Shown here: in pieces, positions 1,683 through 22,735 of the stretch
How the letters are laid out: the number at the start of each line of letters is the position of its first letter
Numbering within the stretch: position 1 is the stretch's first letter
Source: Candidatus Multivoradales bacterium
GTDB lineage: Bacteria; Acidobacteriota; Thermoanaerobaculia; Multivoradales; JAHEKO01
Reading direction: 5' to 3'
DNA: 64,000 bases
Assembly (NCBI GenBank): GCA_965223855.1
Contig: CBDCXM010000009.1
Span: 1,696,001 to 1,760,000, forward strand
Program-made: the position numbers and the translations under genes
The notes under the pieces: generated by a model
The model's input: the letters and a program-made list of their open reading frames with translations, nothing else
Database searches by the model: none
What the model was told of the DNA's origin: nothing

Positions 1683-3187
1683 CCGGCGGCCAGCTCCAAC
1701 CCTGGGCGCTCGCCTTCGGCGCCCTGACGCTGGTGGCGATGCTCGCCCTCGGAGCCTGGGCGGCGGGCCGGACGCGCGACCTGCGCGACTTCTACGTCGC
1801 CGGGCAGTCGCTCGGGCTCGCGGTGACGGCGCTCGGCACCATGTCGGCCGCCTTCAGCGGGTTCGTCTTTCTCGGCGGTCCGGGGCTCACCTACCGGATG
1901 GGCGTCGCCGCGCTCTTCATCTGCCTGCCTCTCGGCTTCACCGGGGCGATGCTGTGCTGGGTCCTCGCGGGGCGGCTGCGTCGACTCGCGGCGGCGAGGG
2001 AGGTGTTCACCGTTCCCGATGCGCTGCTGGCGCGCTTCGACAGCCGGGCGGTCTCCGGTGCCGCGGCGGTGGCGGTGCTCGTCGGAACCCTCGCCTACCT
2101 CGGAGCCCAGCTTCAGGCGCTCGCGCTCGTCGTCGAGGCGGTCTTCGGTCTGCGTGAGCTGGCCGGAGAGGGGGCGCCGCTCCTCGCGATGGCGCTCGGC
2201 CTCGCCGTCGTCCTCGCCTACTCCGTGGCCGGCGGCATGGTCGCGGGAGCGTGGACCGACGCCGTCCAGGGGTTCCTGATGATGGTCGCGGCGGTTGCGG
2301 TCTTCGCCGTCGCCCTGGGGCGCGGCGGCGGAGTCTCCGGGATCGTCGAGGCGGTGACGGCGAGCCCCGACTTCGGTCCCGGCTTCTTCGACCCGTTCGC
2401 CACCGCTCCGGTACTCACCGTCGCCGGCTTCTTCCTCGTCTTCGGTGTCGGCACCCTCGGCCAGCCGCACATGCTGCACAAGTTCTACATGCTGGACGAC
2501 GTCCGCAAGCTGCGCTGGATGCCGCTCGCCCTCGGCGGCAGCCAGCTCATCTGCGTGCTCGTGTGGCTCGGCATCGGGCTCGCGGTGCCGGCCCTCGTGG
2601 CCTCGGGCGCGATGGAGGCGCTGACCAACCCGGACGAGGCTGCGCCCCGATTCCTGCTCGAGCAGGTGCCGCCGTGGCTCGCGGGTTTCGTGTTCGCCGG
2701 TGTGCTGGCGGCGGTGATGTCGACCGCCGACTCCTTCCTCAACGTTGCCGCGGCGGCGCTGGTGCGCGATCTGCCCGTGGCGCTCGGTCGTCGCCCCCCG
2801 GTCGGACTGGCCACCAGCCGGGCGGCCGTGGTCGCGGTCGGGATCGGCGCGGCGCTCTTCTCGCTCGGCTATCGCGACCTCATCGCGCTGCTGGGCACCT
2901 TCGCCTTCGGCATGTTCGGCGCGGCGCTCGCTCCGGTGCTGGCGGTCGGCTTCAACTGGCGGCGGGTGAGCGCCGCTGCCGCCCTCGCCTCGATCGTCAC
3001 CGGCACGACGGTTCACCTCGGTCTCGAGGCGTGGCGCCGCATCGAGGGGCTGCCACCGCTGCCGCTCGCGCCCGGCGCGTTGACCGGGACCGTGTCGTTC
3101 GCCGCTTCGCTGGCGGTGTTGTTGATCGTGAGCGGCTTGAGCGGGCCGCAGCCGCTCGATCCCGACCTCGAAGAGATTGTCGGGTGA
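1679..3187 (+). CDS. Sodium:solute symporter family protein (PutP/PanF-like)
   Basis: DFYVAGQSLG, SGFVFLGGPG, YSVAGGMVAGAWTDAVQG, GQPHMLHKFY, AAVMSTADS motifs; about 13 TM segments. Confidence 0.9.
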   Translation: MTGGQLQPWALAFGALTLVAMLALGAWAAGRTRDLRDFYVAGQSLGLAVTALGTMSAAFSGFVFLGGPGLTYRMGVAALFICLPLGFTGAMLCWVLAGRLRRLAAAREVFTVPDALLARFDSRAVSGAAAVAVLVGTLAYLGAQLQALALVVEAVFGLRELAGEGAPLLAMALGLAVVLAYSVAGGMVAGAWTDAVQGFLMMVAAVAVFAVALGRGGGVSGIVEAVTASPDFGPGFFDPFATAPVLTVAGFFLVFGVGTLGQPHMLHKFYMLDDVRKLRWMPLALGGSQLICVLVWLGIGLAVPALVASGAMEALTNPDEAAPRFLLEQVPPWLAGFVFAGVLAAVMSTADSFLNVAAAALVRDLPVALGRRPPVGLATSRAAVVAVGIGAALFSLGYRDLIALLGTFAFGMFGAALAPVLAVGFNWRRVSAAAALASIVTGTTVHLGLEAWRRIEGLPPLPLAPGALTGTVSFAASLAVLLIVSGLSGPQPLDPDLEEIVG

Positions 3188-3238
3188 GTCGTCAGTTCGG
3201 CTGGGCGCGCAACAGCTCCCGGTGCCTGGTGAAGAACC

Positions 3239-6200
3239 CTAGGCGGTAGCCGGTTCCTCCTCGCTGCCGGCGCGGGCGGCGAGCCGGGCCCGGAACTTCT
3301 CCCGCATCTCGAGGACCAGCGAGAAGAGGGCCGGCACGAGGAAGAGGGTGAAGGCGGTCGAGACGGCGAGGCCGCCGACGACGACCGAGCCGAGACCGCG
3401 GTAGAGCTCGGAGCCCGCCCCGGGGAAGAGCACCAGCGGCAGCATGCCGCAAAGACTGGTCGAGACGCTCATGAAGATCGGGCGGATGCGGGTGCGGGTC
3501 GACTCGCGGATCGCCGGCGTCGGTTCCATGTCGTCCTCGCGCATGTGGTTGAGCGCCTGGTGGACGATCAGGATGGCGTTGTTGACGACGGTGCCGATGA
3601 GGATGATGAAGCCGAGCATTGTCAGCACGTCGAGCGCCTGGTAGCTGAAGAGGTTCAGCACCCCGAGGCCGAGGAAGCCGCCGAGCGCCGCCAGCGGCAC
3701 ACTGAAGAGGATCACGAACGGGTAGAGGAAGCTCTCGAAGAGCGCCGCGATCAGCAGATAGGTGATGACGATCGCCAGCAGCAGGTTCCACTGGAGCGCC
3801 CGCCGCGTCTGGGTCAGCTTGTCGGCGCTTCCCGAGTAGGTCACCCGGTAGAGCCCGCCGATGCGGCCGCCGTCGCGCATCGGCTGCAGGATCGCCGTGT
3901 CGATCGACTCCATCGCCGATTGCAGCGGGATCTCGTCGGGCGGCGTCACCTGGATGGTGATCGTCCGCTCGCGCTCGCGATGGTCGATCTGTACCGGGCC
4001 GTTGACGAGCTCGACCTGTGCCACCGAGCCGAGCGTCACGACCTCGCCGCCGGGAGTGGCGATCGGCATCTGCTCGAGCAGGTGAGTGCGCTGGTCGAAG
4101 GTCGTGTCCGCCTTCAGGACGAGATCGATCTCGCGGCCCTGATGCTGGTAGTCGGTCGCCTTGGCGCCGTCGATGAGGGCGTTGACGACGTAGCCGAGCT
4201 CGCGGTTGGAGATGCCGAGCGCGGAGGCGCGCCGGCGGTCGGTCTGGACGCGGATCTCCGGGTTGCCGAGGTCGAGCCCGGGGATCGGGATCGCCTGAGC
4301 GCCGGGCAGCACCTGCTGGATCTTCCCCATCACCTCGCCACCGAGGCCGATCAGCCGGGTGAGGTCGGGGCCCGTGATCTCGACGTCGATGTTGCGGCCT
4401 TCACCGAATCCGCTCGAGAAGATCGACGACTGCGAGACGAAGGCGATCGTCCCCTGCAGGTTGCCGTTGACCTGCTGGATCGCATCGACCAGCTCGCGCG
4501 CTCTGAGCGGGTCGGTGGCGCGCGCCCCCATGAACGCCTGGTTGGCGAAGACGCCGAAGAAGAAATGATCGATGCCTCCTCCGGGGAGTGCCTCGGCCTC
4601 GGCACCCGTCGCTTCCCACAACGGGCTGAGTTCGCGGTCGTAGATGTCGTTGAACGCCGCGACGGTGTCGATGTTGTAGCCCGGTGGCGGCAGGGCGAAG
4701 CCGAAGACGAAGTTCATGTTCCCGAGTGGCAGGTACTCCGCCTTCGGCACCAGCAGGATCGACAGCAGGATCGCGCCCAGCGTGAAGCCGAGCACCACCG
4801 CGACGCGGCGCCCGGTGGTCGAACAGATCCATTCGACCCGGTCGGCGATCCACTGCGCGACGCGTGCGAACTTCGGCGCCCACCCCCAGAGATTGGCGAA
4901 GCCGCCGTTGCCGCTCGGCTTGCGGTCGGCGGCGTCGAGCATCTTGGCCGACAGGCTCGGAATGACGGTGATCGCCACGACCAGGCTGAGGCCGACGCCG
5001 CAGCTGATGGCGATCGCGATGTCGCGGAAGAGCTGCCCCGCCTCCTCCTGCACGAAGAGGATCGGCACGAAGACGGCGATCGTCGTCAGCGTGCTGGCGA
5101 GCACCGCCCCCCAGACTTCGCGCGCACCGTCGAAGGCGGCGTCGAAGCGCCGCTTGCCCATCTGCCGGTGGCGGTAGATGTTCTCCAGGACGACGATCGA
5201 ATTGTCGACCACCATGCCGACGGCGAACGCCAGACCAGCCAGCGAGATGACGTTGAGGGTACGGCCCAACGCGTTCATGGCGAGGAACGAGCCGATGATC
5301 GAAATCGGGATCGCCGCCGCGACGATGAAGGTGCTGGTGCGGCTGCGCAGGAAGAGCAGCAGCGCGGTGATCGCCAGAATGCCGCCGAGGACGAGGCTCT
5401 GGCGCACCAGCCCGATCGCGCTGTAGACGTAGTCGGTCTCGTCGTACGCCTGGGTGAGGCGAAGGCCCCGGTCGGCGAGCAGCTCGTCGTTGAGATCGGC
5501 GACCGTCGCCTTGACGCCGCGCATGGTGTCGAGGACGTTCGCCCCCGGCTCCTTGATCGCGTTGACGGCGATCATCTCCTCGCCGCGGTAGAAGATCTTT
5601 GCCCCCGGCTTCCGGTACCCGAGCTCCACCTTCGCCAGGTCGCGCAGATAGAGCGGGACGCCGCCGCGCACGGCGACCACGAGGCTCTCGATCGACTCCG
5701 GCGAGTTGAACTCGCCCACGGTGCGCACGACGTAGCGCCGCTTGCCCTCGGCGAAGTCGCCGCCGGAGAAATTGCGGTTCTCGCGGTCGAGTGCCGCGGC
5801 GAGCTCGTTGACGGTGACGCGGTGGGTCGCGAGCGCCGCCGGGTCGAAGATCACCTGCATCTCGCGTTCGCGGCCGCCGAAGAAACCCGACTGAGCGACC
5901 CCCGGGACCCGTTCGATCGCCGGCTTGATGTGGTCGTCGACGAAGTTGTGGAGTTTCCAGATGTCGTCTTCGTAGGGCTCCTCGCCGTGCGGTTGGAGGA
6001 TGAACCAGGCGATGGCGCTCCGGTTGGGGTCGGAGGTGAAGAGCACCGGCTTCTGAGCGTCGTCCGGGTACGACGGCACCTGCTCGAGCCGGTTGGAGAC
6101 CTTGAGCAGGTTGGCGTTCTTGTCGCTGCCGACGGCGAAGGTGAGAGTGATGGTGCCCGACGAGTCGGAGCTCGAACTCTGCATCTTCACCAGCCCGTCG

Positions 6201-6428: not shown

Positions 6429-7542
6429 TCACGGGACGGTGTAGTCGATCGGTTCGGTGAGCACCGGAGCGCCGGGCATCAGCCGCTCGTTGCCGCGGGT
6501 GATGACCGTGTCGCCCGGGGCCACGCCCGCCGCCTCCACCCAGTCGTCGACTGCCGCGCCGAGCTCCACCGGAACCGGGTTGGCGACCTTCGTCGGGTTG
6601 CCCTCGGCGTCGGGCGGGCCGTCCTCGACCCGGTAGACGAGGCGCGCCGCTCCCTGGCTGACGACGGCGTCCTTGGGGACGATCGTCGCCACCCTGGCGC
6701 TGCCGCTCGGGAAGGAGACGACGGCGCTCATCCCGAGGCCGATCGCTTCGTCGGGATCGACGATTCCGACCTTGACGGGGAAGGTGCGCGCCTGTTCGTC
6801 CGCTTTCGGGATGACGGCGACGACCTGTCCTTCGAAGTCGCGCGACGGCAGCGAGTCGAGGCGCACCCGAGCCGCGGTGCCGGTGCGCGCCCCGGCGAAG
6901 TACTGCTCCGGCACGCTGACGACGACGCCGAGCGAGCGCGGGTCGAACATCTCGACCACGCCGCCGCCGGCCGCGACCCACTCGCCGACGTCGCACAGTT
7001 CGCGCACGACGATGCCGGAGAAGGGGGCCCGGATCACCGACCGCCGGACCTGCGTTTCGAGCCGGGCAATGAGCGCCCGCGCTTGATCGACCCGCCCCTG
7101 CCAGGCGCCCTCTTCGGACTCCGCGTCGTCGAACTGCTGGCGCGAGATCACCCCGGACTCGTGGAGCTCGCGGGCGCGGGTACGACTGCGTCGGGCGAGC
7201 TCGAGTCGCGCCTCCGCCTCGGCGAGCTGTCCCTCGGCCGCCTCGAGGTCGCGCTCCAGCGTCTCACGGCGCAGCCGTGCCAGCGTCGCGCCGCGCTTGA
7301 CGGGCGACCCCTCGCGTGCCCGAAGCTCGGCCACCACCCCCGACTCCTCGCTGGCGACGACGGCGTGGGTCTCGGCCTCGACGTTGCCGGCCAGCCGGAC
7401 GAGTGGTTGCACCTCGGCCTGAGCGGCCGCCGTCACGCCGACTCTCGTGGGACCGAAGCCCTGGCTCCAGGCAGGGCTGCAGACAGCCGCCGCCAGACGA
7501 GACTGCGGCGGCAAAGAAGGTACGTGCAGGCAATCGGTGCAT
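6429..7542 (-). CDS. RND efflux periplasmic adaptor (MFP); apparent frameshift in the signal region near 7500
   Basis: Lipoyl/hairpin MFP pattern (VASEESGVVAEL, IRAPFSGIV, IVPKDAVV). The signal peptide MHRLPARTFFAAAVS... is in a different frame from ...LAAAVCSPAWSQ. Confidence 0.85.
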
Positions 7543-7672
7543 CGGTTCAGATCTCCGTTGAGGCGAAAATAAGGCGCAACTCATCTTGTCATCGCTCACC
7601 GGGTTTCGCCAGCCCCTGGAAGGTGGGTACGCAGCGGCTCCGGGAGAGTTTCCGCTTGACCGTCTGTGCAGA

Positions 7673-7696
7673 ATATGTGACCATTGAGTCACATAT
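7673..7696. promoter_or_regulatory. Perfect inverted repeat ATATGTGAC-N6-GTCACATAT, probable ArsR operator
   Basis: AT-rich palindrome in the divergent intergenic region between the RND operon and the second ArsR gene. Confidence 0.75.
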
Positions 7697-7802
7697 AGGG
7701 CAAGGTGACAGGCAGGACGACAACGCAGGACGACAGAGCAGGACCGCAGCGCCGCCGCAGGCAGCAGACCGATGAAGCCGGATGACGAGCAGAGCCGCCA
7801 GG

Positions 7803-8141
7803 ATGAGTAAGGCCGACGACAGGGACGACCTGTTGTGGCGGGCGCTTGCCGATCCGACCCGTCGGCGCCTGCTCGACCTGCTGCGGGAGGGGTCGCGAAC
7901 GATGGGTGAGCTGGCGAGTCACTTCGAGGTCACCCGCTTCGCAGTTCGCAAGCACCTGCTCGTGCTCGAGTCGGCAGGCCTCGTCGTCATCACACAACGC
8001 GGCCGGGAGCGGGTGCACACCCTCAACCCGGTACCGATTCAACAGATCTATCGACGATGGATCCGCCCGTTCGAGGCGGTGCCGGCAGACCGCCTGCTGC
8101 GGCTGCGCGACCTCGTCGAACCACAGGGAGAGACAGCATGA
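7803..8141 (+). CDS. ArsR family transcriptional regulator
   Basis: LWRALADPTRRRLLDLLREG...TRFAVRKHLLVLESAGLV...GRERVHTLNPVPIQQIYRRW. Confidence 0.9.
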   Translation: MSKADDRDDLLWRALADPTRRRLLDLLREGSRTMGELASHFEVTRFAVRKHLLVLESAGLVVITQRGRERVHTLNPVPIQQIYRRWIRPFEAVPADRLLRLRDLVEPQGETA

Positions 8142-8624
8142 CCGACACCTTCGATGCCAGGGGCACCACCTACGTTCTGGAACTCGAGATCGAGAGCGAG
8201 CCGCGAGGCGGTATGGGACGCGCTCACCTCGAAGATCGGCGACTGGTGGCCGCAGGAGTTCTTCGCCGGCGGCGAGGCCGGGAGCCGCAGCTTCGCCCTC
8301 GACGCGACGCCCGGCGGGCATATGACGGAGCGCTGGGACGGGGGCGGCGGCCTCCTGTGGGGTACGGTCGTGACCGTGAGGCCCGGCCGCCAGCTGCAGC
8401 TGACGGCAGTCTCTTTTCCCGAGTGGGGTGGGCCGGCGACGACGCTCCTGTCCTACGACCTCGAGGACGCAGGCGAAGGGACGTCGCTGCGCTTCGCCGA
8501 GTCGACCCTCGGCCGGGTGAGCGACGACACCCAGAGCGAGAAGGACAAGGGTTGGCGCTTCCTCTACGACGGCGTGATGCGCGCCTTCGTCGAAGGCGGC
8601 GTGCCGCCGGCCTGGGAGGGCTGA
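8138..8624 (+). CDS. SRPBCC domain protein (apparent 1-nt frameshift near 8195)
   Basis: MTDTFDARGTTYVLELEIE continues in another frame as ASREAVWDALTSKIGDWW...KGWRFLYDG; removing one A restores LEIEASREAVW. Confidence 0.75.
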
Positions 8625-8768
8625 TCTTTCGCGGCTGCGGTAGCTCCACTCGGCTCCCGCTCGTGGTCCGGGGGCCGGGTGCGAAGGCGCCTGCTGAATG
8701 GAGTCAGCGTGTAGGCTTGGCGCTCCGGTCGGCACTGCGGCCGCCGGGGCGACGAGGGAGGCGCGACC

Positions 8769-10046
8769 GTGGCGGAGGCCGGCAAGGAGGGTAGGCGCAA
8801 GGCGGCGATGGCGTTCATCCTCGTCACCCTCTTCCTCGACATTCTGGGCATTGGCCTCATCATCCCGGTGCTGCCGGCACTGGTGCGCGAGTTCGTCGGC
8901 GGCAACAGCTCGGACGCGGGGCTCTACTACGGCATCATCGGCGCCTCCTACGCGCTGATGCAGTTCCTCTGCGCCCCAGTCCTGGGAGCGCTCTCCGATC
9001 GCTTCGGGCGGCGGCCGATCCTGCTGGTGGCGCTCTTCGGGCTCGGCGTCGACTACCTGATTCAGGGCTTCGCTCCGTCGATCGGCTGGCTCTTCGTCGG
9101 GCGGATCTTCGCCGGCATCATGGGGGCGAGCTACACCACCGCCAACGCCTACGTCGCCGACGTCTCCACGCCGGAGAACCGTGCGCGCAACTACGGTCTG
9201 ATGGGCGTGATGTTCGGGGTCGGCTTCATCTTCGGCCCGGCCCTCGGCGGGGTGCTCGGCGGCATCCATCTGCGATTGCCGTTCTTCGTCGCCGCCGGCC
9301 TGGCGCTCGTCAACTGGCTTTACGGGTTCTTCATCCTCCCCGAGTCGCTGCCGGCGGAGAAACGCGGATCGTTCTCGTGGGGCAAGGCGAATCCGTGGGC
9401 AAGCATCCGCAACCTCGGCCGCTACCCGCTGGTCGCGGGGCTCGCGGTCGCCTTCGTCTTCATCGCCCTCGCGCAGCGGGGACTCGAGAACGTCTGGGTG
9501 CTCTACACGAGCTATCGCTACGGCTGGGGCGAGACCGCGAACGGACTCACCCTGGCGCTGGTCGGCTTGACGGTGGCGTTCGTGCAGGGGGTGCTCGTGC
9601 GCCCGTTCACGGCCAGGTTCGGCGAGCGCCGGACGGTGCTGATCGGCCTCACCGTCGGCATCCTCTCGTTCCTCGGCTACGGCTTCGCCTCCGAGGGGTG
9701 GATGCTCCTGACGGTGATCGTCATCGGCTCGATCGGCGGCGTCGCCGGCCCCTCGATCCAGTCGCTCGTCGCCGGTTCCGTGGAGCCTTCGGAGCAGGGG
9801 AAGGTGCAGGGCGCTCTGACCTCGCTCTTCAGCCTGACGGCGATCTTCGCACCGCTGATCTTCACTTCGGGGCTCTTCAGCTACTTCACGTCGCGGGCTG
9901 CGCCGATCGAACTGCCGGGCGCTCCCTTCTTCCTCGGCGCCGTGCTCTTTTTGCTCTCGCTCCTCGTGACGCGGCGGGTCTTCAGGCGCCTGCCGCCGAG
10001 GGAGGAGCGCGAAGCCAATCTCGAGGCGGCAGCGGGCGGGCGCTGA
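8769..10046 (+). CDS. MFS transporter, TetA/DHA1 (TCR/Tet) family
   Basis: Motif A GALSDRFGRRP, motif C GFIFGPALGGVLG, LPES, and EQGKVQGA. Confidence 0.93.
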   Translation: MAEAGKEGRRKAAMAFILVTLFLDILGIGLIIPVLPALVREFVGGNSSDAGLYYGIIGASYALMQFLCAPVLGALSDRFGRRPILLVALFGLGVDYLIQGFAPSIGWLFVGRIFAGIMGASYTTANAYVADVSTPENRARNYGLMGVMFGVGFIFGPALGGVLGGIHLRLPFFVAAGLALVNWLYGFFILPESLPAEKRGSFSWGKANPWASIRNLGRYPLVAGLAVAFVFIALAQRGLENVWVLYTSYRYGWGETANGLTLALVGLTVAFVQGVLVRPFTARFGERRTVLIGLTVGILSFLGYGFASEGWMLLTVIVIGSIGGVAGPSIQSLVAGSVEPSEQGKVQGALTSLFSLTAIFAPLIFTSGLFSYFTSRAAPIELPGAPFFLGAVLFLLSLLVTRRVFRRLPPREEREANLEAAAGGR

Positions 10047-14626: not shown

Positions 14627-15814
14627 ATGCACGGCTCGCCCGGGTCGAACGACGGCGTGATCGACAGCTCGACCGACGGCCAGGTGCTCGCCCGGGCCTG
14701 GCAGCAGTGGTGCCGCGGGCCGTGGTGGCTGCACGTCGTCGCCGTCGCCTCCCTGGCCGCTCTGGCGGCGCTGCGCAGCTGGCCTGTCGTCGCGAACCTC
14801 TCCGAGCCGCTGGGAGACGAGGTCTGTTACCTGCGCGCCTTCGAGAGCGTGCTCGCCGGCGAGTCGCCGTTCGAGCAGCCGTGCTACGTGTACCCGTCCG
14901 TGGTCGCCCTGACGGGCGGCCTCGGCTTCGAACTCCTCGGCAGGGATGCCACGGTGGCGCTGATGCGCGCTCTCAACCACGTCGGCCTCGGATTCGCCGC
15001 GTGGATGGCGGTCGGCTGGCTGCCGGCCTCGTGGATTCGCCGCGCCGCCGGCGCCGCCGCCTTCGTGGCTCTCGCACCTCAGGCGGTCTACTCGGTGCGC
15101 TTCGGCAACCTGTCGATGCTGGCGGTCGGCCTGATCCTGCTGGCGCTGGCCTGTGGGTCACGGCGGCCGCTCACCGGAGGGGGGCTGCTCGGTGCGAGCA
15201 TCGCCGTCAAGCCGCTGGCACCGATGGTGGCGTTGGGGTGGCTCCTGGCGGGCCCGACCCGAGCGTTGCGCCTCGCCGGGGGCGTCGCGCTCGGAGCGGC
15301 GGCGCTGCTGGTGCTGGCGTTCCCCCATCTCGACGACCTGCTGGCGCTCCATCGCACCGACAAGGTGGTGCGCACGGTGACCTTCCATCGCTTCCCGCCG
15401 CTGCTCGGCCTCGAGACGAGTGCGCTGTGGATCTCGTTGCCGCTCGCGCTCGGGTTCCTCTGGTGGTTGGTCAGAAGCGAGCCGGGACCGGGACAGCGAC
15501 TGGCGCTGCTGACCGTCGCCTGCCTGGCGGTGACCCCGGTGGTGTGGAGTCACACCCTGGTGCTGGCGTTGCCGCTCGAAGTGATGGTCGGCACCGTCGC
15601 GTGGCGTCGCTGGTCGCGACGCAGGGCTGCCGTCGCCGGCGCCTGGATCGAGCCGGCGTTCGTGGCCGTGGCCGTGGTGGCGATCCAGTTCGCCGCCGGA
15701 GCCGGAGGAGTCGACGATCGGGCTGTGGCGCTGCAACTCGTGGCAGGGGCGGTCCCGGGCTTGGCGCCGATCTTCCTCGTCGCCTACCTGTTGCGCGCGA
15801 CGGATCGGTTCTGA
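14627..15814 (+). CDS. GT-C membrane glycosyltransferase-like protein (GT87/DUF2029-like)
   Basis: GDEVCY..A, YVYPS, RFGNLS, SIAVKP and PVVWSHT patterns; multi-TM. Confidence 0.7.
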   Translation: MHGSPGSNDGVIDSSTDGQVLARAWQQWCRGPWWLHVVAVASLAALAALRSWPVVANLSEPLGDEVCYLRAFESVLAGESPFEQPCYVYPSVVALTGGLGFELLGRDATVALMRALNHVGLGFAAWMAVGWLPASWIRRAAGAAAFVALAPQAVYSVRFGNLSMLAVGLILLALACGSRRPLTGGGLLGASIAVKPLAPMVALGWLLAGPTRALRLAGGVALGAAALLVLAFPHLDDLLALHRTDKVVRTVTFHRFPPLLGLETSALWISLPLALGFLWWLVRSEPGPGQRLALLTVACLAVTPVVWSHTLVLALPLEVMVGTVAWRRWSRRRAAVAGAWIEPAFVAVAVVAIQFAAGAGGVDDRAVALQLVAGAVPGLAPIFLVAYLLRATDRF

Positions 15815-15929
15815 GGGTCGGGTTTCGGGGTCCGGAACGGGCTCGGCGCGGGTCCGGAATGCGGCCAGAGCCCTATGCTAAGGTCCACCGGATCGAGTCG
15901 TGCCAATCGAGGGGCGAGGAGGAGGTTTC

Positions 15930-16775
15930 ATGGCGAAGAAGAAGACGTTCCGGATCAAGGATCTGATGGTCACCGTGCTGCCGAAGCACGTCAGGGTCGC
16001 CCAGTGGCACTGTCTCCACGCGACGGTCTGCCGCCTCCCGAGTCGCGACGCGGACTTCGACGACTACGACGCCCAGGACTGTGGCCCGCCGGGCACCGCG
16101 ATCACCAGCCCCGGGGGTCACTGCCGGGAGGGGGTGAACACCCTCTTCCCATGTGATCCGGGCGAGGCAACGGTGACGGTCTGGTGCAACGACATTACCG
16201 ACTGCGACGGCGCCAACCTCTCCTACGACGTGGACTGCAAGGAGGGCGAGACTTCGATCGATCCCTGCGACGCGAGAGTCGCGCCGACCAATTGCCAGGG
16301 CGTGGTCGCCTCCGACGATGCCTGTGACCAGGGCCAGGGCAGTGACTGTTTCTGGGGAGTCGCGTCGGACTGTGAGGGCGATGGCGGCAGCGAGTGCCCG
16401 GCGCTGGCGGGTTCCGAGTGCGACGACGAGCCCGGTGCCGACGGTTCCCAGTGCCCCGCGCTCGAGGGGTCGCAGTGCGACGACGGCGGAGAGGGTGCGG
16501 CCTCCGGGTGCACCCAGCTCGACGGCTCGGCCGGCGAGATCTGCGGCATCACCGAGCCGTCGGCCTGTGGCGGCGAGAGCGCGATCGGCCTCAACTTTTC
16601 GCGTGTGAACGGCCTCGACGCACTGAAACGCGAACTACGTCAGGCGCTCAAGCAGGTCGAGTCGTTCGAGAAGGCGAAGTATCTCGAGGTGGCGGGACGC
16701 ACGCCGCTCGACGAGGAGGAGCGCCAGCGCCTCGCCCGCAGGGTCACGGAGAACTTCACCGGCGACGATCGGTGA
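15930..16775 (+). CDS. Cys/Ser/Thr-rich acidic protein, putative giant lanthipeptide precursor (281 aa)
   Basis: Strong GGAGG RBS; 20 Cys alternating with Ser/Thr; C-terminal amphipathic helix; directly upstream of the lyase and kinase-LanC genes. Confidence 0.8.
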   Translation: MAKKKTFRIKDLMVTVLPKHVRVAQWHCLHATVCRLPSRDADFDDYDAQDCGPPGTAITSPGGHCREGVNTLFPCDPGEATVTVWCNDITDCDGANLSYDVDCKEGETSIDPCDARVAPTNCQGVVASDDACDQGQGSDCFWGVASDCEGDGGSECPALAGSECDDEPGADGSQCPALEGSQCDDGGEGAASGCTQLDGSAGEICGITEPSACGGESAIGLNFSRVNGLDALKRELRQALKQVESFEKAKYLEVAGRTPLDEEERQRLARRVTENFTGDDR

Positions 16776-16810
16776 GGGCGCCGTCAGGAGCCTGAGCCGG
16801 CGATCCTCGG

Positions 16811-17995
16811 GTGGCCGGCACGCTGACTCAGCTGCGTGAGTTGGCCGGGGTCGGTCTGCGGGCCGGCCGTGGCTACACACTGCGTTCCCTGGAGGAGATC
16901 AGCTCCGAGGAGCGTGAGGCGCTCGGTGCCGCCGCCGACGATCCGGCGGCGGTGGCGTTGTTGCTTCCCTCCGAGGGGAGCGGGCTGACGGTGAAACTGC
17001 TCGACTCGAGGACAGCGGAACTGTTCCGCTCGCTCGAGTCGTCGGTCTCGCGGAGTGAGCTCGCCGAGGGCCCGCAGGCGATCCAGGTCGCCCGGCTGAT
17101 CGCAGACGGCGTACTGGAGATCGAAACCTCCGACGGGTTCGTCGGTGGGCCGGCGTCGCTCCCCTTTCTCCTGGATCCGGTTCCGGATCCCGACGCCATG
17201 TCGGGGCGGGCGGCCCGCCTTGCCGTCGCGGCGGTCCGCTACGGTGCGAGTCTGGGGAAACTGCCCGCGCCCCTGCTGGCGATGCGGCTCTATCACTTCC
17301 ATCGTCTTCCCGAGTCGCGCGGATGGAGGCGGCGCCTGCCCGACGACGAGGCGGTGGATGCCTATCTCGGGATCAGCGAGGGAGAGACCGGACGACTGCT
17401 CGAGAGCACATGGATACCGATCGCCCGTGACGAGCCGAACCCCTACTGGCGGATCTGGCGGCATCGCAATCCACCGCCGGTGAGGCGACGCAGAAGGGCT
17501 ACCTGGAAGCTGTACGTGAGTCCGCTGCTCACCGACCTCCCCTCCCTTCTGCCGACAGTGGTTCGCGTCCTCGGCGAGCTTCAGGTGCCGAACTTCAAGA
17601 TCGGGCGCGGCCTCGGCGGGCTGCTGCGACCCGACAAGATCGTCTCCTACTACTGGTCGAAGGAGCATGCCGAGCGCACCCTCCGGCGCCTGGCCGCCGA
17701 GTTCGAGGGAGTCGCGGCCCACGGAGTGCCCTTCGCGGCGGTTCCGTCGGGAAACGGGTTGATCTCTCTCGGCGTCGATCCGCCGCGCGAAGAACATGTC
17801 GCCCCATGGCTCGAAGGGGCGAGCTACCGGCTGTGGGTCTGTCGCTTCCTCGCCGCGGCGCTGCGTCCGTGCGCGGCGCGGGGGATGCCGGTCGACGATG
17901 CCGCCCGCTTCGCTCTCTCGCGACTGCACCTCGAGGGTGTCGATGTGGAAAGCTGGACGCCCGACCCTGAGCGACTGGACTTCCTCGATGACTGA
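16811..17995 (+). CDS. Stand-alone phosphoSer/Thr lyase-like protein (HopA1/LanY-like) with N-terminal RRE-like domain
   Basis: TWKLYVSP...NFKIG...LLRPDKIVSYY...GVPF...GVDP motifs resemble OspF/HopA1-type lyase domains; overlaps the start of the kinase-cyclase gene. Confidence 0.72.
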   Translation: MAGTLTQLRELAGVGLRAGRGYTLRSLEEISSEEREALGAAADDPAAVALLLPSEGSGLTVKLLDSRTAELFRSLESSVSRSELAEGPQAIQVARLIADGVLEIETSDGFVGGPASLPFLLDPVPDPDAMSGRAARLAVAAVRYGASLGKLPAPLLAMRLYHFHRLPESRGWRRRLPDDEAVDAYLGISEGETGRLLESTWIPIARDEPNPYWRIWRHRNPPPVRRRRRATWKLYVSPLLTDLPSLLPTVVRVLGELQVPNFKIGRGLGGLLRPDKIVSYYWSKEHAERTLRRLAAEFEGVAAHGVPFAAVPSGNGLISLGVDPPREEHVAPWLEGASYRLWVCRFLAAALRPCAARGMPVDDAARFALSRLHLEGVDVESWTPDPERLDFLDD

Positions 17996-20342
17996 AGCGC
18001 TCGATCTGACCGCCGCGTTCGTTCTGCCGCGCCACGCACATCTGACCCCGATCGAAGAGCTTCCGGACGACCAGCGCGAGCAGGTCGGCGGCGAGCCTGG
18101 CGAGTCGGCCCTGACCCTCGCCTTCGGGCGGGCGGGCTCGAAGGTCGTGGACGGACCGACCGCAGAGCTGCTGACCCTGTTTCGAGAGCCGAGGACGATC
18201 GTCGAAGCGGTGATCGAGTTCGCGTCGGCCGAAGGTCTCGATCCCGAGGAGACCCTCGAGGCGGCCTACCCGGTGCTGTCGCGGCTTCTGGCGGCAGGCT
18301 ATCTGGTTCCGGCGGACTCGCCGGCCGCCGATCCGCCGCAACCGCGTTTCTCCCAGGGGGACCGTGTCGGGTCGTGGGAGGTCCGACGATGCATCCGGAT
18401 GATGCTCGATACGGAGATCTATCTCGCGCGCGGCGAAGAGGGTCGGGCAGCGATCAAGGTCGCGAGGGAGGCCGACCGATCTCACCTCGAGAGACGGTTC
18501 GACCGCGAGCGGCGGATCTACGAACTCCTCGATGGACTCGAAGTGGTGCCGAGGTTCCTGGGTAGCGGCGAGGTCGAAGGCAGGCCGTACCTCGTTCTGG
18601 AGTGGTGCGCCGGCCACCCCTCCAACTCGCCTCACGTCCGGTGGGGAGCGACTCGCCAGGCGCATCTCGAGTTCGCGGCTCGGACGCTCGAGGCCTATCG
18701 GCGCCTTCACGAACGCGGCGTGCTGCATGGTGACGTCCACGCCGAGAACCTGATGATCGCGTCCGACGGCGAGGTCCGGCTGATCGACTTCGGTGCCGCG
18801 AAGGTGCTGGACGCCTCCGACGAGCTCGGGCGGGCTCCGAGAATGGGAGTCGCCTACTACTACGAACCGGAGTACGCGGCCGCACTCGCCGCCGGTCGAC
18901 GCGGCCCGCCGGTCACCCTCGAAAGCGAGCAATATCGCATCGCGGCCGTTCTCTACAGCCTCCTGACGGACGCCCACTACCTGGACTTCAGGCTCGAACA
19001 GAGCGAGATGCTCGAGGCGATTCAGACAGACCCGCCGCTGCCGTTCACCCATCACGGTGTAGCGGGTCAGGAGGCTGTCGAGCGTGTCCTGGCGAGAGCG
19101 CTCGAGAAGAGCCCGGAACGGCGGTTCCCCTCCACTTCCGACTTCTGCGAGGCGTTCGCCGAAGCGCTGGACGAAACCCCTGCCGCTCCGGGCCTTTCGG
19201 CCGGACTCCTCGATCAGGCGGAGGGCGTCGTCGCCGAGCTGCTGGAGAACGCGGCCCCGGACGGGGTCTGGGTGCGGAAGGGGCTCGCCGCCGCTCCCCG
19301 CGCCTCGATCAACACGGGAGCTGCGGGCGTCGCGGTCGCGCTCGCCCGGATCGCCGAGATCCGCGATGATCCGGTGGCGCTGGCGACGGCCGACGTCTGG
19401 GTGGCGCGAGCGTTGAGCGATCTGGGCGACCACGAGGCGTTCTTCGGGCCCGACGGCGAGCTGCGCGAAGACATCGTCGAGGAGGTCTCGCTGTTCCACT
19501 ACGAGCCCGGGCTTCATGTCGCCGACGCAATCGTTGCGCAGCTGCTCGGAGATCGGCAGCGAGCCTCGGTGGCCGCTCGTCGCTTCATCCGCTCCTGCTC
19601 GCGCGAGTGGGAGAACCCCGATCTGACGCTCGGTCGGACGGGTGCCCTCATCGGATCCGCCATTCTCGTCGACAGACTCGGCGCCGATGAGTCCCTCCTC
19701 TCCTTTGGCGCCGAAGTCGAGTCGAGCGTCTGGGACTCGCTTCGGCACAAGTCGCCGATCGCCGGGCCCGAAAGCTCGTTCAACCTCGGCCTGGCTCACG
19801 GCTGGGCGGGGGTTCTCTTCGCCTCGATGCAGTGGAGTCGCGTCTCCGGGCTGCCGCTTCGCGACGAAGTGGAAGAGCGCCTCGACCAGCTCGCCGCACT
19901 GGCACAACCTCACGGCCGTGGAGTGCGCTGGCCGTGGTACCTCAAGGGGGAGAACCGAGAGCCTGTCTACATGCCGGGCTGGTGCAGCGGTGCGACCGGC
20001 CACGCGTTGCTGTGGGCGGAGGCGGCGCGGTCGTTCGACCGCGACGCCTATCTCGGACTGGCGAGCGGGTCGGCCTGGTCGGCGTGGAGAACTCCGTTCG
20101 GCTCCGATCACCTGTGCTGCGGTGCTGCGGGTGGCGCCTTCGCGATGCTGCGGCTTCATGGAACGACCCTCGAGCCGGATTGGAAGGTCCGGGCGCAGCG
20201 TCTCTTCCAGAAGTCCCTCGTACCTCCGGCGGAAGAGGCGAACTCGCCCGCCAGCCTCTATCGGGGGCGAACGGGAATCGCCCTGCTTGCCGCCGAACTC
20301 GAGGGGGACGCAGCGGCGCGGATGCCGATGCTCGAAGTCTGA
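17988..20342 (+). CDS. Ser/Thr kinase-LanC cyclase fusion (lanthionine synthetase lacking an internal lyase domain)
   Basis: Kinase: AAIK, HGDVHAEN, LIDFG, YYEPE. LanC: GxxG repeats, NLGLAHGWAG, GWCSGATG, HLCCGAAG, LYRGRTG. Confidence 0.9.
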   Translation: MTEALDLTAAFVLPRHAHLTPIEELPDDQREQVGGEPGESALTLAFGRAGSKVVDGPTAELLTLFREPRTIVEAVIEFASAEGLDPEETLEAAYPVLSRLLAAGYLVPADSPAADPPQPRFSQGDRVGSWEVRRCIRMMLDTEIYLARGEEGRAAIKVAREADRSHLERRFDRERRIYELLDGLEVVPRFLGSGEVEGRPYLVLEWCAGHPSNSPHVRWGATRQAHLEFAARTLEAYRRLHERGVLHGDVHAENLMIASDGEVRLIDFGAAKVLDASDELGRAPRMGVAYYYEPEYAAALAAGRRGPPVTLESEQYRIAAVLYSLLTDAHYLDFRLEQSEMLEAIQTDPPLPFTHHGVAGQEAVERVLARALEKSPERRFPSTSDFCEAFAEALDETPAAPGLSAGLLDQAEGVVAELLENAAPDGVWVRKGLAAAPRASINTGAAGVAVALARIAEIRDDPVALATADVWVARALSDLGDHEAFFGPDGELREDIVEEVSLFHYEPGLHVADAIVAQLLGDRQRASVAARRFIRSCSREWENPDLTLGRTGALIGSAILVDRLGADESLLSFGAEVESSVWDSLRHKSPIAGPESSFNLGLAHGWAGVLFASMQWSRVSGLPLRDEVEERLDQLAALAQPHGRGVRWPWYLKGENREPVYMPGWCSGATGHALLWAEAARSFDRDAYLGLASGSAWSAWRTPFGSDHLCCGAAGGAFAMLRLHGTTLEPDWKVRAQRLFQKSLVPPAEEANSPASLYRGRTGIALLAAELEGDAAARMPMLEV

Positions 20343-20365: not shown

Positions 20366-22735
20366 TCAGGCCCGCTCGGGTACCCAGGCCAGCCCCACGA
20401 GGTGCACTTCGACGTCCGCACGTCGGGGCCGCAGCTCTTCGGTCGTCAGCTCCTGGTGCATCGGGTCGAGGCTCTCGCGCAGGGCGTCGATCTCGCGTTG
20501 CGCCTCGGCGTCGAGCTCCTGGATCTCCGCCTGAATCGCTTCGATGTCCTCTTCGGCGCGATCGACGTCCTGCGAGTCACGCCAGGAGCGGGTGGCGCTG
20601 CGCATCGCGGTACCGGCGTTGCGGCGCACGCTGCGGCCGAGCACGGCACCGAGCAAGGTGGTGCCGATGTTGACGACGGTGTCGAGCTTCACCTGCCGGG
20701 CCTGCTGCTCTTCCTTCTCGCGGCGTTGCTCGGCTTTCCTGAGGCGCTCTTCGAGCTTCTCGATCTGGCCGGCATACTTGTCGCGCAGAGCGTCGAGCCT
20801 GGCGTCGCGCTCCTCGCGGGTGGCGTGCTGCAGTCGAACGCGGAAGTCGCGCTCGCTCTCGCCCGGCTCGGCCACCAGCCCGAACGCTTCGCTCTCCATC
20901 AGCTCGAGCTTGCGGTTGCGGTAGAGCCACTCTGAGAAGTCCTTCGTCCACGCGCTCCACGACTTCGACTGCGCCGCTTCGGACGGTACCGAGGCGAACT
21001 GGGCATCGGCGACCGGCACCTCCTCGAGACGCGAGGCGGGGACGGCGCTCATCTCGACCCGTTCCCAGTCGACCGGTACCGTGCCGTCGGTCAGCGGCGC
21101 GAGCACGGTGAGCTCCTCGGAGGTGTCGATGTCGTGCTTGCGATCGACGAAGTGCACCGTCGCCGCTCCGACGAGCCGGGGTTCGTAGCGCACCGCCGCG
21201 CCAACGGGAAGATCGCGGGCGGGCAGGAAGTACTGCTCGATGTCGGGATCGAGCACCGGTCTAGCGGAGGCGGCCTTCACCGGCGTGGCGGCTGGAGCTT
21301 CGTCGCGCTCACCGCCGGCGGGCCGCCGCCCGTCCATCAACCTTCGGATCTGATCGCGGGTCATCGGCCCGCGCAGGTAGGAGAGTACCCAGCGGGTCTC
21401 GAACACCACCGGGCCGTCGTCATGAACGTTGTGGAGCAGGAACTTGCGCTTGCCGAGACCGGCGAGGGTCTCCTCCATCTCGCCGCGATCGAAGCGCCCG
21501 GCGGCACCGGCGGAGGCTCCCTCGAGACCGTCGAGCACGCGGTTCTTGTCGCGAGCCGTCTGCAGGCGGCCGATGAACCACGAGCCGGTGTTCGAGAGCC
21601 CCTTGTAGTCGAGGTCGACCGGGTTCTGGGTCGCCAGCACGACGCCGACGCCGTGCGCCCTTGCCTGTTTGAGGAGCGTCAGCAGCGGGCGCTTCGAGGG
21701 TGGATTGGCGACCGGCGGCATGTAGCCGAAGATCTCGTCCATGTAGACGAGGGCGCGCAGGCTGCTGGTGCCCGGCTGCGACCGGGTCCAACCGAGGACC
21801 TGGTTGAGCAGGAGCGAGACGAAGAACATCCGCTCCGAGTCGTCGAGGTGAGCGATCGAGAAGATCGCCACTCGCGGTTTGCCGGTGTCGGTGTAGAGGA
21901 GGCTCTGGACGTCGAGCGACTCCCCCTCCATCCAGGCTGAGAAGCCGGGAGCGGCGAGCAGGTTGTTGATCGTCATCGCCAGCTTGAACCGCTCCGAGGC
22001 AGGGTAGAAGGCGTCGAGATCGATCACACCCACCTTGTCGATCGGCGGATCCTGGAGGCTCTGGATGACCGCCGGCAGATCGAGATCGCGACCCTCGCGC
22101 CATTCGTGGTCGAGGATCGTCGACAGCAGGATGTGCTCGCGGCTCTGGAGGGCGTCCGCTTCGATGCCTACGAAGCCCAGGAGGCTCGAGACCGTCGTGC
22201 TGATGCGGTCGCCGAAGAGCTCGGCGTCTTCGATCACCTCACGCGGTGGGGCGCGGAAGGAGTCGAGGATCGACACCGGGATTCCGGCCGACGAACCGGG
22301 AGTGTAGATCGCGAAATCGGCGGCCTCGCGCAGTCGCCGGATGCGATCACCGTCCTGTCCCCATGAAGCGAGCCCCTTGCGCCACAGCTCGGCCTGGCCG
22401 GCCGCATACTCGGCTGGCGTCAACCCGTCCTTGCGGGCGTCGTCGGCGTTGATCCACGGCTCGAAGTCCTCCGGAGCGAGGTCCGGGAAGGTCAGGAGCA
22501 GGTTGCCGAGATCGCCCTTCGGGTCGATGACGATCGCCGGGACGCCGTCGATCGCCGCCTCCTCGAGCAGACCGATGCACAGCCCGGTCTTGCCGCTGCC
22601 GGTCATGCCGACGCATACCGCGTGCGTCGTCAGGTCCTTCGAGTCGTAGAGCAGCGGCACCCCGGCCGACTCGCCCGACCCGAGGTCGTGCGGCCGGCCG
22701 AGGAAGAACGCCCCCAGCTTTTCGTAGTCCTTCAA
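20366..22735 (-). CDS. HerA-like/DUF87 P-loop ATPase with C-terminal coiled coil
   Basis: HAVCVGMTGSGKT, IDPKGD, YMDEIFG, LATQNPVDLDYK; TTG start. Confidence 0.88.
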   Translation of the reverse strand: MKDYEKLGAFFLGRPHDLGSGESAGVPLLYDSKDLTTHAVCVGMTGSGKTGLCIGLLEEAAIDGVPAIVIDPKGDLGNLLLTFPDLAPEDFEPWINADDARKDGLTPAEYAAGQAELWRKGLASWGQDGDRIRRLREAADFAIYTPGSSAGIPVSILDSFRAPPREVIEDAELFGDRISTTVSSLLGFVGIEADALQSREHILLSTILDHEWREGRDLDLPAVIQSLQDPPIDKVGVIDLDAFYPASERFKLAMTINNLLAAPGFSAWMEGESLDVQSLLYTDTGKPRVAIFSIAHLDDSERMFFVSLLLNQVLGWTRSQPGTSSLRALVYMDEIFGYMPPVANPPSKRPLLTLLKQARAHGVGVVLATQNPVDLDYKGLSNTGSWFIGRLQTARDKNRVLDGLEGASAGAAGRFDRGEMEETLAGLGKRKFLLHNVHDDGPVVFETRWVLSYLRGPMTRDQIRRLMDGRRPAGGERDEAPAATPVKAASARPVLDPDIEQYFLPARDLPVGAAVRYEPRLVGAATVHFVDRKHDIDTSEELTVLAPLTDGTVPVDWERVEMSAVPASRLEEVPVADAQFASVPSEAAQSKSWSAWTKDFSEWLYRNRKLELMESEAFGLVAEPGESERDFRVRLQHATREERDARLDALRDKYAGQIEKLEERLRKAEQRREKEEQQARQVKLDTVVNIGTTLLGAVLGRSVRRNAGTAMRSATRSWRDSQDVDRAEEDIEAIQAEIQELDAEAQREIDALRESLDPMHQELTTEELRPRRADVEVHLVGLAWVPERA

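Follow-up and report, generated by a model that had tools for sequence, protein, structure and literature searches.

What product is made by three tightly packed genes that encode a Cys-rich protein, a putative lyase, and a kinase fused to a LanC-like cyclase? The question is raised by a locus in Candidatus Multivoradales bacterium (Acidobacteriota; assembly GCA_965223855.1, contig CBDCXM010000009.1), which was analyzed within a 64-kb stretch of DNA (64,000 nucleotides, positions 1,696,001 to 1,760,000 of the contig), called the window below. According to the open reading frame (ORF) calls, three same-strand genes fill positions 15930-20342 of the window. They likely form a RiPP-type system (RiPPs being peptides that the ribosome makes and that are modified after translation) that installs lanthionine and methyllanthionine bridges on a long precursor. 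What the analysis shows is the order of the genes and how far it is conserved, the protein folds and their domain families, the conservation of the catalytic residues, the anatomy of the precursor, and an interface between the leader and a RiPP recognition element (RRE) at the level of a model.

The spacing between gene 1 and gene 2 is 35 bp (16776-16810), and gene 2 and gene 3 overlap by 8 bp (17988-17995). This co-oriented layout agrees with a preliminary description of the locus that was made from the sequence alone. The motifs quoted in that description are all present (WKLYVSP, FK, and RPDKIVSYY; AAIK, HGDVHAEN, DFG, GLAHG, WCSG, and CCG), and the first protein, called Cys/Ser/Thr-rich there, contains 20 Cys, 17 Ser, 16 Thr, 31 Asp, and 32 Gly in 281 aa. 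The third-position GC is 0.87, 0.81, and 0.81 for genes 1, 2, and 3 in a window of about 69% GC, so the three frames fit real coding sequences. A Shine-Dalgarno-like run, GGAGGAGG, ends 4 nt before the ATG at 15930. Between 14400 and 20700, neither promoter nor terminator sites were predicted (0 of each), which is uninformative.

Two enzymatic domains were identified in gene 3 by Pfam. Pkinase was matched at 5.4e-18 (65.8 bits against a cut-off of 31.7) and LANC_like at 8.4e-26 (90.8 bits against 23.2). APH is a weaker match that overlaps Pkinase (9.6e-11), and Pkinase is the best kinase family. Of the profile searches that had been proposed, those for Pkinase and LANC_like gave matches above the cut-offs, and the one for HopA1 gave none in gene 2 at E <= 0.1. 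The motifs of gene 3 are AAIK (K157), HGDVHAEN (D249), DFG (D267), GLAHG (H604), GWCSG (C666), and HLCCG (C710/C711). Among 64 full-length family members, K157, E174, H247, D249, N254, and D267-x-G269 in the kinase domain, and H604, W665-C666, and C710-C711-G712 in the cyclase domain, are each conserved in at least 95%. Conservation to this extent suggests that gene 3 has retained both active sites. Its zinc motif reads CCG and not CHG, with Cys instead of His at the third ligand position.

The best-scoring named family for gene 3 was NF038150 (class IV LanL), with 141.4 bits against a cut-off of 650, and NF038151 (class III LanKC) reached 98.8 bits against a cut-off of 575. The NF038150 alignment spans model positions 184-800 only. 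Since it starts at position 184, the lyase part of LanL is missing from gene 3, as the preliminary description had proposed for its kinase-LanC fusion.

The N-terminus of gene 3 was further examined by structure prediction. The AlphaFold2 model of residues 1-125 alone has a predicted local distance difference test score (pLDDT) of 86.9. A Foldseek comparison with the PDB ranked PqqD (5sxy, E 9.7e-4) first, followed by TigE, MibB, LynD, and TbiB1. Similarly, the VIA wide search returned PqqD at Z 10.4 (93 of 94 residues aligned, root-mean-square deviation 2.5), TigE at 10.2, TbiB1 at 9.9, and lasso B1 at 9.3, with most of the domain covered. The model indicates that the first ~115 residues of gene 3 are an RRE with a PqqD-like winged-helix fold. 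A decayed lyase domain in the N-terminal 122 residues was also considered and was ruled out by the RRE fold found with Foldseek and VIA.

Irregular frames were seen in two homologues of gene 3. In Amaricoccus macauensis, the kinase-LanC (L037:7119-9586) is present as two overlapping ORFs (7119-8939 and 8840-9586), for which a frameshift or an assembly error is possible. In Bacillus pfraonensis (L026:7179-7383), the match of the kinase-LanC N-domain begins at 7191 and the first in-frame ATG, GTG, or TTG lies at 7383; another start codon may be used, or the frame may be broken near the start.

Gene 2 contains the motifs TWKLYVSP, NFKIG, and LLRPDKIVSYYW. Its AlphaFold2 model has a pLDDT of 87.4 and a predicted template modeling score (pTM) of 0.86. 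Foldseek gave 16 PDB matches at E <= 0.001, and every one of them is LxmY, HopA1, SpvC, or the lyase domain of a LanKC or LanL enzyme; the lexapeptide dehydratase LxmY is at the top (E 5e-6), HopA1 follows at 2.6e-5, and the lyase domains of SalKC, CuvL, ThurKC, and PneKC are also included. In the VIA search, HopA1 was found at Z 15.6 (229 aligned residues), LxmY at 15.2 (232), and ThurKC and CuvL at 14.0 (~160), with SalKC at 11.7, PneKC at 10.3-10.8, and OspF at 10.3 below them. The lyase group spans Z 15.6 to 8.9 and covers model residues 124-389, and unrelated folds appear from Z 7.3 down. Of the 30 named neighbors of gene 2 in the ESM Atlas, 28 fall into clusters of HopA1 (PF17914), the highest score being 0.96. 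On the evidence of the predicted structure, residues 124-394 of gene 2 are a phospho-Ser/Thr lyase fold of the HopA1/LanY-like type, which is the role that had been assigned to the middle protein.

The conserved residues of gene 2 were compared with those of known lyases. K233-L-Y235, K263, G270-L-L-R273-P-D-K276, Y280, and R340 are invariant in an alignment of 35 sequences. According to PMC9486802, residues K104, H106, K136, R148, and Y158 of SpvC correspond to R187, none, K219, R229, and Y236 of CaoY; K219 and R229 matter for elimination in CaoY mutagenesis, Y236 aligns with Tyr158 of SpvC, and LanY enzymes are described as active without the SpvC-type His. The K263-R273-Y280 spacing of gene 2 (10 and 7) is equal to that of K219-R229-Y236 in CaoY, and the distance from K233 to K263 is 30 residues, compared with 32 in CaoY and SpvC. 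From the motifs and the fold we infer that K263 would act as the base, K233 as the enolate stabilizer, and R273 and K276 as phosphate binders, with Y235 in place of the His acid.

The N-terminal ~120 residues of gene 2 appear to be related to the RRE of gene 3. The hhalign comparison of the two N-domains gave a probability of 76.7% and an E value of 2.1e-5 over 66 columns, and VIA matched residues 13-110 of the gene 2 model to the N-terminus of TigE at Z 6.9; the tie of this domain to the RRE fold runs through these two results only.

Recognition of the leader was then addressed by complex prediction with the full lyase and precursor residues 1-45. The ipSAE values were 0.60, 0.62, and 0.79 (median 0.62), and the controls gave 0.01, 0.01, and 0.00. 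Of 80 solved complexes, 58 reached that mark, as did 2 of 110 mismatched pairs. The three runs have at least 45% of the contacts in common. Leader residues 5-21 are placed on the N-domain of the lyase, which is contacted at residues 30-71 and 88-101, and leader residues 9-15 pair with the lyase strand 60-65. The predicted pairing corresponds to the strand-addition mode known for RREs, and the model supports binding of the leader to the RRE of the lyase. By homology, the RRE of the kinase-cyclase should bind the same leader.

The precursor has no known Pfam or NCBIfam family; neither the window protein nor any of 8 homologues gave a match above a Pfam cut-off. Its leader is nearly constant in the family, with the pattern M-x-F-K-[IV]-K-D-L-M-[IV]-x-V-x-P. 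The conserved stretch is 15 residues long, the window leader contains FRIKDLMVTVLP, and the motif was aligned across 37 precursors and across a set of 28. Hidden Markov models (HMMs) for the two ends were built from 37 curated precursors. The N-terminal HMM matched 53 ORFs in the loci and the C-terminal HMM matched 72, and the window precursor scored 1.6e-6 in its own genome with the former and 3.5e-11 with the latter. The family C-terminus is a conserved helix-PQT-helix region. The core region is unalignable between family members and frequently contains internal repeats, such as CTGTT, CTxxCT, CTPSPP, and CPEDT. A constant leader, a variable core, and a conserved C-terminus are the usual pattern of a RiPP precursor. 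The family ranges from 81 to 282 aa (median 174) with 4-30 Cys; the precursor is protein-sized, as had been suggested, although the window copy of 281 aa is near the top of the length range.

The core of the window precursor, presumed to be the site of dehydration and thioether formation, is a Gly-rich, acidic region of ~200 residues with 20 Cys spaced by 6-17 residues. It contains 11 [ST]-x-C motifs, compared with 2.56 +/- 1.42 in shuffled cores, and none of 20,000 shuffles reached 11. For 18 of the 20 Cys a Ser or Thr lies within 5 residues upstream, which was reached by 2 of 20,000 shuffles. Family-wide, distances of 1-3 residues from Ser/Thr to the next Cys predominate. At the DNA level, only one tandem array (9 bp, 2.1 copies) was found in the precursor gene, and the protein repeat SECPALAGSEC / SQCPALEGSQC is too diverged for DNA tandem-repeat detection.

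Several loci carry more than one precursor unit. In six of them (L012, L014, L015, L041, L046, and L052), two tandem precursor genes have near-identical leaders and C-termini and different cores; both precursors of L041 are ~270-280 aa long with 26-28 Cys. On the Paenibacillus peoriae HS311 plasmid NZ_CP011513.1, an annotated 250-aa ORF upstream of the lyase (L112:5029-5781) consists of three in-frame tandem units, in each of which a leader (MFRTVDLAANVA) is followed by a short core (NDCGITCLASCG...) and then by a helical region (LLAAMKAELKTALDEVEAQE). This ORF is either a poly-precursor or three nested starts. In L068:4797-5997, the matches of the N- and C-terminal HMMs lie in different frames, and a frameshift or an assembly error is possible.

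The conservation of the gene order was measured in relatives and in a wider sample. The lyase was found in 5 of 40 relatives of the window genome; the kinase-LanC is directly downstream in 5/5, and in 3/5 a Cys-rich ORF that shares the leader and the C-terminus lies upstream. A scan of GTDB species genomes gave 350 lyase relatives, from which 80 loci were kept. The kinase-LanC, detected by its N-domain or its kinase, follows the lyase in all 80, and the LanC part is visible in 77; the other three (L021, L023, and L071) stop at a contig edge. A precursor-HMM match was found in 69 of 85 loci, nearly always on the same strand and just upstream of the lyase. Nine further precursors with variant leaders, such as MPKIRDLGINVIPE and VAFKAEELTxKIFP, were found by reading the loci, for a total of 78/85. 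In the remaining loci, other genes occupy this place in L055, L070, and L076, no precursor-like ORF was found in L010 and L011, and L069 and L071 are cut at a contig end. The co-occurrence of the three genes, which had been named as the neighborhood check, is borne out by these counts. Within the window's own genome, there is one cassette and one precursor; no second cassette or extra precursor was found with the two precursor HMMs (E <= 1) or tblastn (1e-5). A distance of ~0.8-1.2 kb between the lyase and the kinase-LanC was noted in an Armatimonadota record (L041:5297-6491) and an Okeania record (L062:5979-6801).

At E <= 0.001, 1,602 clusters (50% identity) were counted for the lyase family, of which 1,445 are at <= 1e-10 and 1,139 at <= 1e-30. 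The best 150 of the 1,602 clusters are 358-507 aa long and none is fused, so these lyases are stand-alone proteins. A fused lyase-kinase-LanC was not found in a search among longer proteins, which is weak evidence. Record titles name Acidobacteriota lineages for most loci. Other titles name Eremiobacterota, Planctomycetota, Gemmatimonadota, Chloroflexota, Actinomycetota, Armatimonadota, Nitrospiraceae, and Bacillus, as well as Trichodesmium and Okeania of the cyanobacteria, and Amaricoccus, Rhodocyclaceae, and Rhodomicrobiaceae of the Proteobacteria. Plasmid-borne copies of the lyase gene occur in Paenibacillus peoriae, Bacillus paramycoides, and Cupriavidus oxalaticus. Of the three genes on the Paenibacillus plasmid, RefSeq labels the first two as hypothetical and the third as 'lanthionine synthetase LanC family protein', and the Bacillus lyase is annotated as 'hypothetical protein'. 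The RRE-type domain on both enzymes, the conserved leader and C-terminal region, and the large family in many phyla all go beyond the preliminary description.

From these data we infer the chemical steps and the ring pattern; the product may or may not be cleaved or exported. The leader (FRIKDLMVTVLP) would first add a beta-strand to an RRE, of which one lies at the N-terminus of the kinase-cyclase and a related one at that of the lyase. The Hanks-type kinase domain would then phosphorylate Ser and Thr of the core, and the free HopA1/LanY-like lyase would remove the phosphate to give dehydroalanine or dehydrobutyrine. Finally, the zinc LanC domain (C666, C710, C711, and H604) would join the 20 core Cys to the dehydro residues, many of them in [ST]-x-C. 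The two enzymes may act as a complex, as LanK and LanY do. The C-terminal helical region may serve as a second recognition element or as an assembly element.

A number of observations count against a lanthionine-forming cassette. Gene 2 has no Pfam or NCBIfam match at E <= 0.1, PF17914 HopA1 included. A profile of 35 gene 2 homologues found no lyase among the PDB sequences, where it returned two chance-level rows, a GGDEF protein (E 0.095) and formyl-THF dehydrogenase (0.41). When the gene 2 family was compared by hhalign with the lyase domain of one LanL-like protein, no significance was reached (E 0.11, probability 0.5%); the sole alignment places TWKLYVSP...FKIG on GFKIHLSA...FKVV, with K-L-Y on K-I-H and FK on FK. 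The mapping of the catalytic residues comes from motif spacing and fold, not from a residue-level superposition, and a Tyr is found at the position of the catalytic-acid His (SpvC H106). In the predicted complex, the leader has a pLDDT of 40-51, below 50 in two of the three runs, and its own fold is uncertain; the complex score may also partly reflect likeness to solved RRE-leader complexes of other families. The window core is unusually long and acidic, with 38 Asp+Glu against 6 Lys+Arg, and rings with one intervening residue ([ST]-x-C) would be small. Furthermore, clustering of 676 ORFs from the 80 loci revealed no protease or transporter conserved beside the cassette that would account for maturation and export. 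Beyond the core genes, the clustering returned generic kinases, clusters antisense to the core genes, which are taken to be high-GC artefacts, and nothing else in more than 9 loci.

Some of the same observations would also fit another outcome, in which the enzymes act on the Cys-rich protein and the end product is not a poly-lanthionine peptide. Phosphorylation or dehydration could be the end point, a small thiol could be added as eukaryotic LanCL proteins do, or the Cys could be used for metal binding or disulfides. The CxxC-like periodicity of many family cores makes metal binding possible, the very acidic and long core of the window and the lack of a linked protease or exporter point the same way, and the C-terminal helical region hints that part of the protein stays folded. 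This outcome is nevertheless considered unlikely. In the 64 members, the zinc ligands of LanC and its active-site His show at least 95% conservation, Cys and Ser/Thr lie at short, non-random distances in the window core with 1-3 residues predominating in the family, and the three-gene linkage, the leader, and the two RREs form the standard layout of RiPP maturation.

Lanthipeptide classes are defined by the distribution of dehydration and cyclization over proteins, and the cassette was compared with each relevant class. It resembles class IV LanL (VenL, SgbL, and CuvL; NF038150) in that a Hanks-type kinase precedes a LanC-like cyclase with zinc ligands on the same polypeptide, in the fold of gene 2, which matches the lyase domain of CuvL at Z 14.0, and in dehydration by phosphorylation and lyase elimination, which for the cassette would be expected from its domains. 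In LanL, however, the lyase is N-terminal in the same chain and there is no RRE, whereas the cassette has a separate lyase, an RRE at the N-terminus of the kinase-cyclase, and CCG rather than CHG as the zinc motif, a distinction described in PMC11251773. Class V LanK/LanY (LxmKY and CaoKY) probably shares the stand-alone HopA1-like lyase beside a kinase; LxmY is the top Foldseek match of gene 2, and the K-10-R-7-Y spacing is that of CaoY. According to PMC9486802 and PMC11186320, class V has a separate APH-type kinase and no LanC cyclase, as the preliminary description had stated. In contrast, the kinase of the cassette is Pkinase-type and fused to LanC, and gene 2 has an extra N-terminal RRE, a Lys at the position of CaoY Arg187 (Lys as in OspF and LanL), and no PF17914 match at the E value given above.

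Like the cassette, class III LanKC and class VI LanKCb pair a kinase with a LanC-like domain and use a lyase of the same fold family. The lyase domain of class VI LanKCb is truncated, and RREs occur in class I dehydratases and many other RiPP classes. LanKC has a cyclase without zinc ligands and a lyase fused at the N-terminus (PMC7268733 and PMC10604976), unlike the cassette, whose cyclase has zinc ligands and whose gene 3 is without a lyase domain. The LanKCb enzymes are reported from streptococci in the review PMC12328550, and their architecture also differs from that of the cassette. Compared with the PqqD-type RREs (PqqD, TbiB1, lasso B1, the LanB/MibB/NisB region, LynD, and TigE), the gene 3 N-domain has the same fold (Z 8-10.4), and the binding mode predicted for the lyase N-domain, a leader strand added to the sheet, is the same as well; the cassette differs from known RRE proteins in having two paralogous RREs, one on the lyase and one on the kinase-cyclase. 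The free lyase, the N-terminal RRE, the zinc ligands, and the Pkinase-type kinase fused to LanC prevent an assignment to classes III-VI. The cassette is outside the architectures of classes I-VI, though probably with the chemistry of classes III-V; the preliminary description had already placed it outside classes I-V, and no class fits. No description of a free lyase with a kinase-LanC, of an RRE on such enzymes, or of this precursor family was found in open-access full text, subscription journals and supplements being outside that search.

The cassette could also be an ordinary class IV system whose lyase was split off by gene fission, in which case the architecture would hold nothing new. 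Gene 3 fits the LanL model (141 bits) better than the LanKC model (98.8) and keeps the zinc ligands, the fold of gene 2 also matches LanL/LanKC lyase domains (Z 14.0), and in one relative (G025) a full-length LanL-like gene is present in addition to the split cassette. However, the match of gene 2 to HopA1 and LxmY extends over ~230 residues (Z 15.2-15.6) and that to the class III/IV domains over only ~160, and gene 2 is not matched in sequence by the LanL and LanKC models. In the region of the LanL lyase, gene 3 has an RRE fold and no lyase remnant, and an RRE is found on both proteins, while class II-V enzymes are said in PMC10604976 (2023) to have no identifiable RRE. The split form occurs in 80/80 loci from many phyla, and the search for a fused form among longer proteins gave none (weak evidence), the best 150 of the 1,602 clusters being 358-507 aa. 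Gene fission looks quite improbable.

A signaling or protein-control module, in which the lyase irreversibly dephosphorylates kinase targets as OspF and SpvC do and the Cys-rich ORF is unrelated or regulatory, is very improbable even though the fold family includes effector lyases acting on kinases, ~20 related loci have an upstream Ser/Thr kinase-PD40 beta-propeller, and the own genome encodes many Hanks-type kinases, since both enzymes carry the RRE fold, the leader motif is more strongly conserved than the enzymes, the leader is predicted on the RRE (controls 0.00-0.01), a variable Cys/Ser/Thr core is always adjacent, and the cassette and the precursor each occur just once in the genome.

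A more specific form of the lanthionine-bridge reading is put forward tentatively, at slightly less than an even chance. The cassette would represent an unnamed further class composed of an RRE-lyase and an RRE-kinase-LanC, which use a 15-residue leader to place dozens of thioether rings in protein-sized cores with a C-terminal helical hairpin. The product would be an intact 'lanthionine protein' that is not cut to a small antibiotic, and the cassette would have spread horizontally over more than ten phyla and be commonest in uncultured Acidobacteriota.

The cassette joins a predicted free lyase of the class V type, a kinase-cyclase of the class IV type with ProcM-like CCG ligands, and the class I-type RRE twice. 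If active, it would add a new lanthipeptide class, offer a natural experiment on two enzymes sharing one leader, and connect the lineages of LanY and LanL. Unusual features of the substrates are a length of 80-280 residues, up to 30 Cys, often internal repeats, and a conserved C-terminal helical part; instead of peptides, small proteins stapled by thioethers may be produced. With its 1,602 clusters, the family is annotated only as 'hypothetical protein' or 'LanC family protein', and genome-mining tools probably misfile or miss the cassette. The proposal is directly testable because homologues are present in cultured Bacillus and Amaricoccus and on Paenibacillus, Bacillus, and Cupriavidus plasmids. 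The coordinates of the features are collected in Table 1.

Table 1 Genes, domains, and signals of the cassette, in window coordinates.
Feature	Position	Strand	Size or residues	Basis
Shine-Dalgarno-like AGGAGGAGG	15917..15925	+		4 nt 5' of the precursor ATG, read from sequence
Gene 1, precursor	15930-16775	+	281 aa	
Precursor leader (MAKKKTFRIKDLMVTVLPKHV)	15930..15992	+	residues 1-21	motif F-[KR]-x-[KR]-D-L-M-[IV]-x-V-x-P
Precursor core (presumed modification site)	15993..16592	+	residues 22-221	composition, spacing, shuffle tests
Precursor C-terminal conserved helical region (LDALKRELRQALKQVE...) and stop	16593..16775	+	residues 222-281	C-terminal HMM, alignment
Gene 2, predicted lyase	16811-17995	+	394 aa, GTG start	
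Gene 2 N-terminal RRE-like domain	16811..17179	+	residues 1-123	hhalign, VIA, complex prediction
Gene 2 HopA1/LanY-like lyase domain (predicted)	17180..17995	+	residues 124-394	AlphaFold2, Foldseek, VIA, ESM Atlas
Gene 3, kinase-LanC	17988-20342	+	784 aa	
Gene 3 N-terminal RRE (predicted)	17988..18332	+	residues 1-115	AlphaFold2, Foldseek, VIA
Gene 3 Hanks-type Ser/Thr kinase (K157, E174, D249, N254, D267-F-G269)	18432..19127	+	residues ~149-380	Pfam Pkinase
Gene 3 LanC-like cyclase (H604, W665-C666, C710-C711-G712) and stop	19305..20342	+	residues ~440-784	Pfam LANC_like

The cassette is flanked by two other ORFs in the window. A co-oriented 395-aa ORF (14627-15814, + strand) lies 115 bp upstream of the precursor and has only a sub-threshold match to a GT87 glycosyltransferase (18.8 bits, where the cut-off is 25; E 0.0014). 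The next ORF downstream is convergent (20366-22735, - strand, 789 aa), with only a short N-terminal DUF87/HerA-type P-loop match (8.2e-7). Neither neighbor gave a tblastn match in the loci of 5 relatives.

In ~20 of the 80 loci, a large Ser/Thr kinase fused to PD40/TolB-like beta-propeller repeats, sometimes with two kinase domains, immediately precedes the precursor in the same orientation, at about 2000-5600. These loci include L023, L024, L033, L039, L044, L047, L051, L060, L066, L067, L073-L075, and L081 and are mostly titled Thermoanaerobaculia or Holophagales; the window is without such a gene at this place.

The LanL model was also searched in 201 genomes of the phylum, where none scored above the cut-off and the 'matches' in 194 of the 201 were swamped by generic kinases; three unpublished genomes (G063, G189, and G088) are counted in this tally, and no claim depends on any of them individually. 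The same-order relative G025 carries a full-length LanL-like gene, L092 (G025:C22:88571-91084), together with the split cassette L008 (G025:C41). L092 covers model positions 1-849 with 568 bits, under the cut-off of 650.

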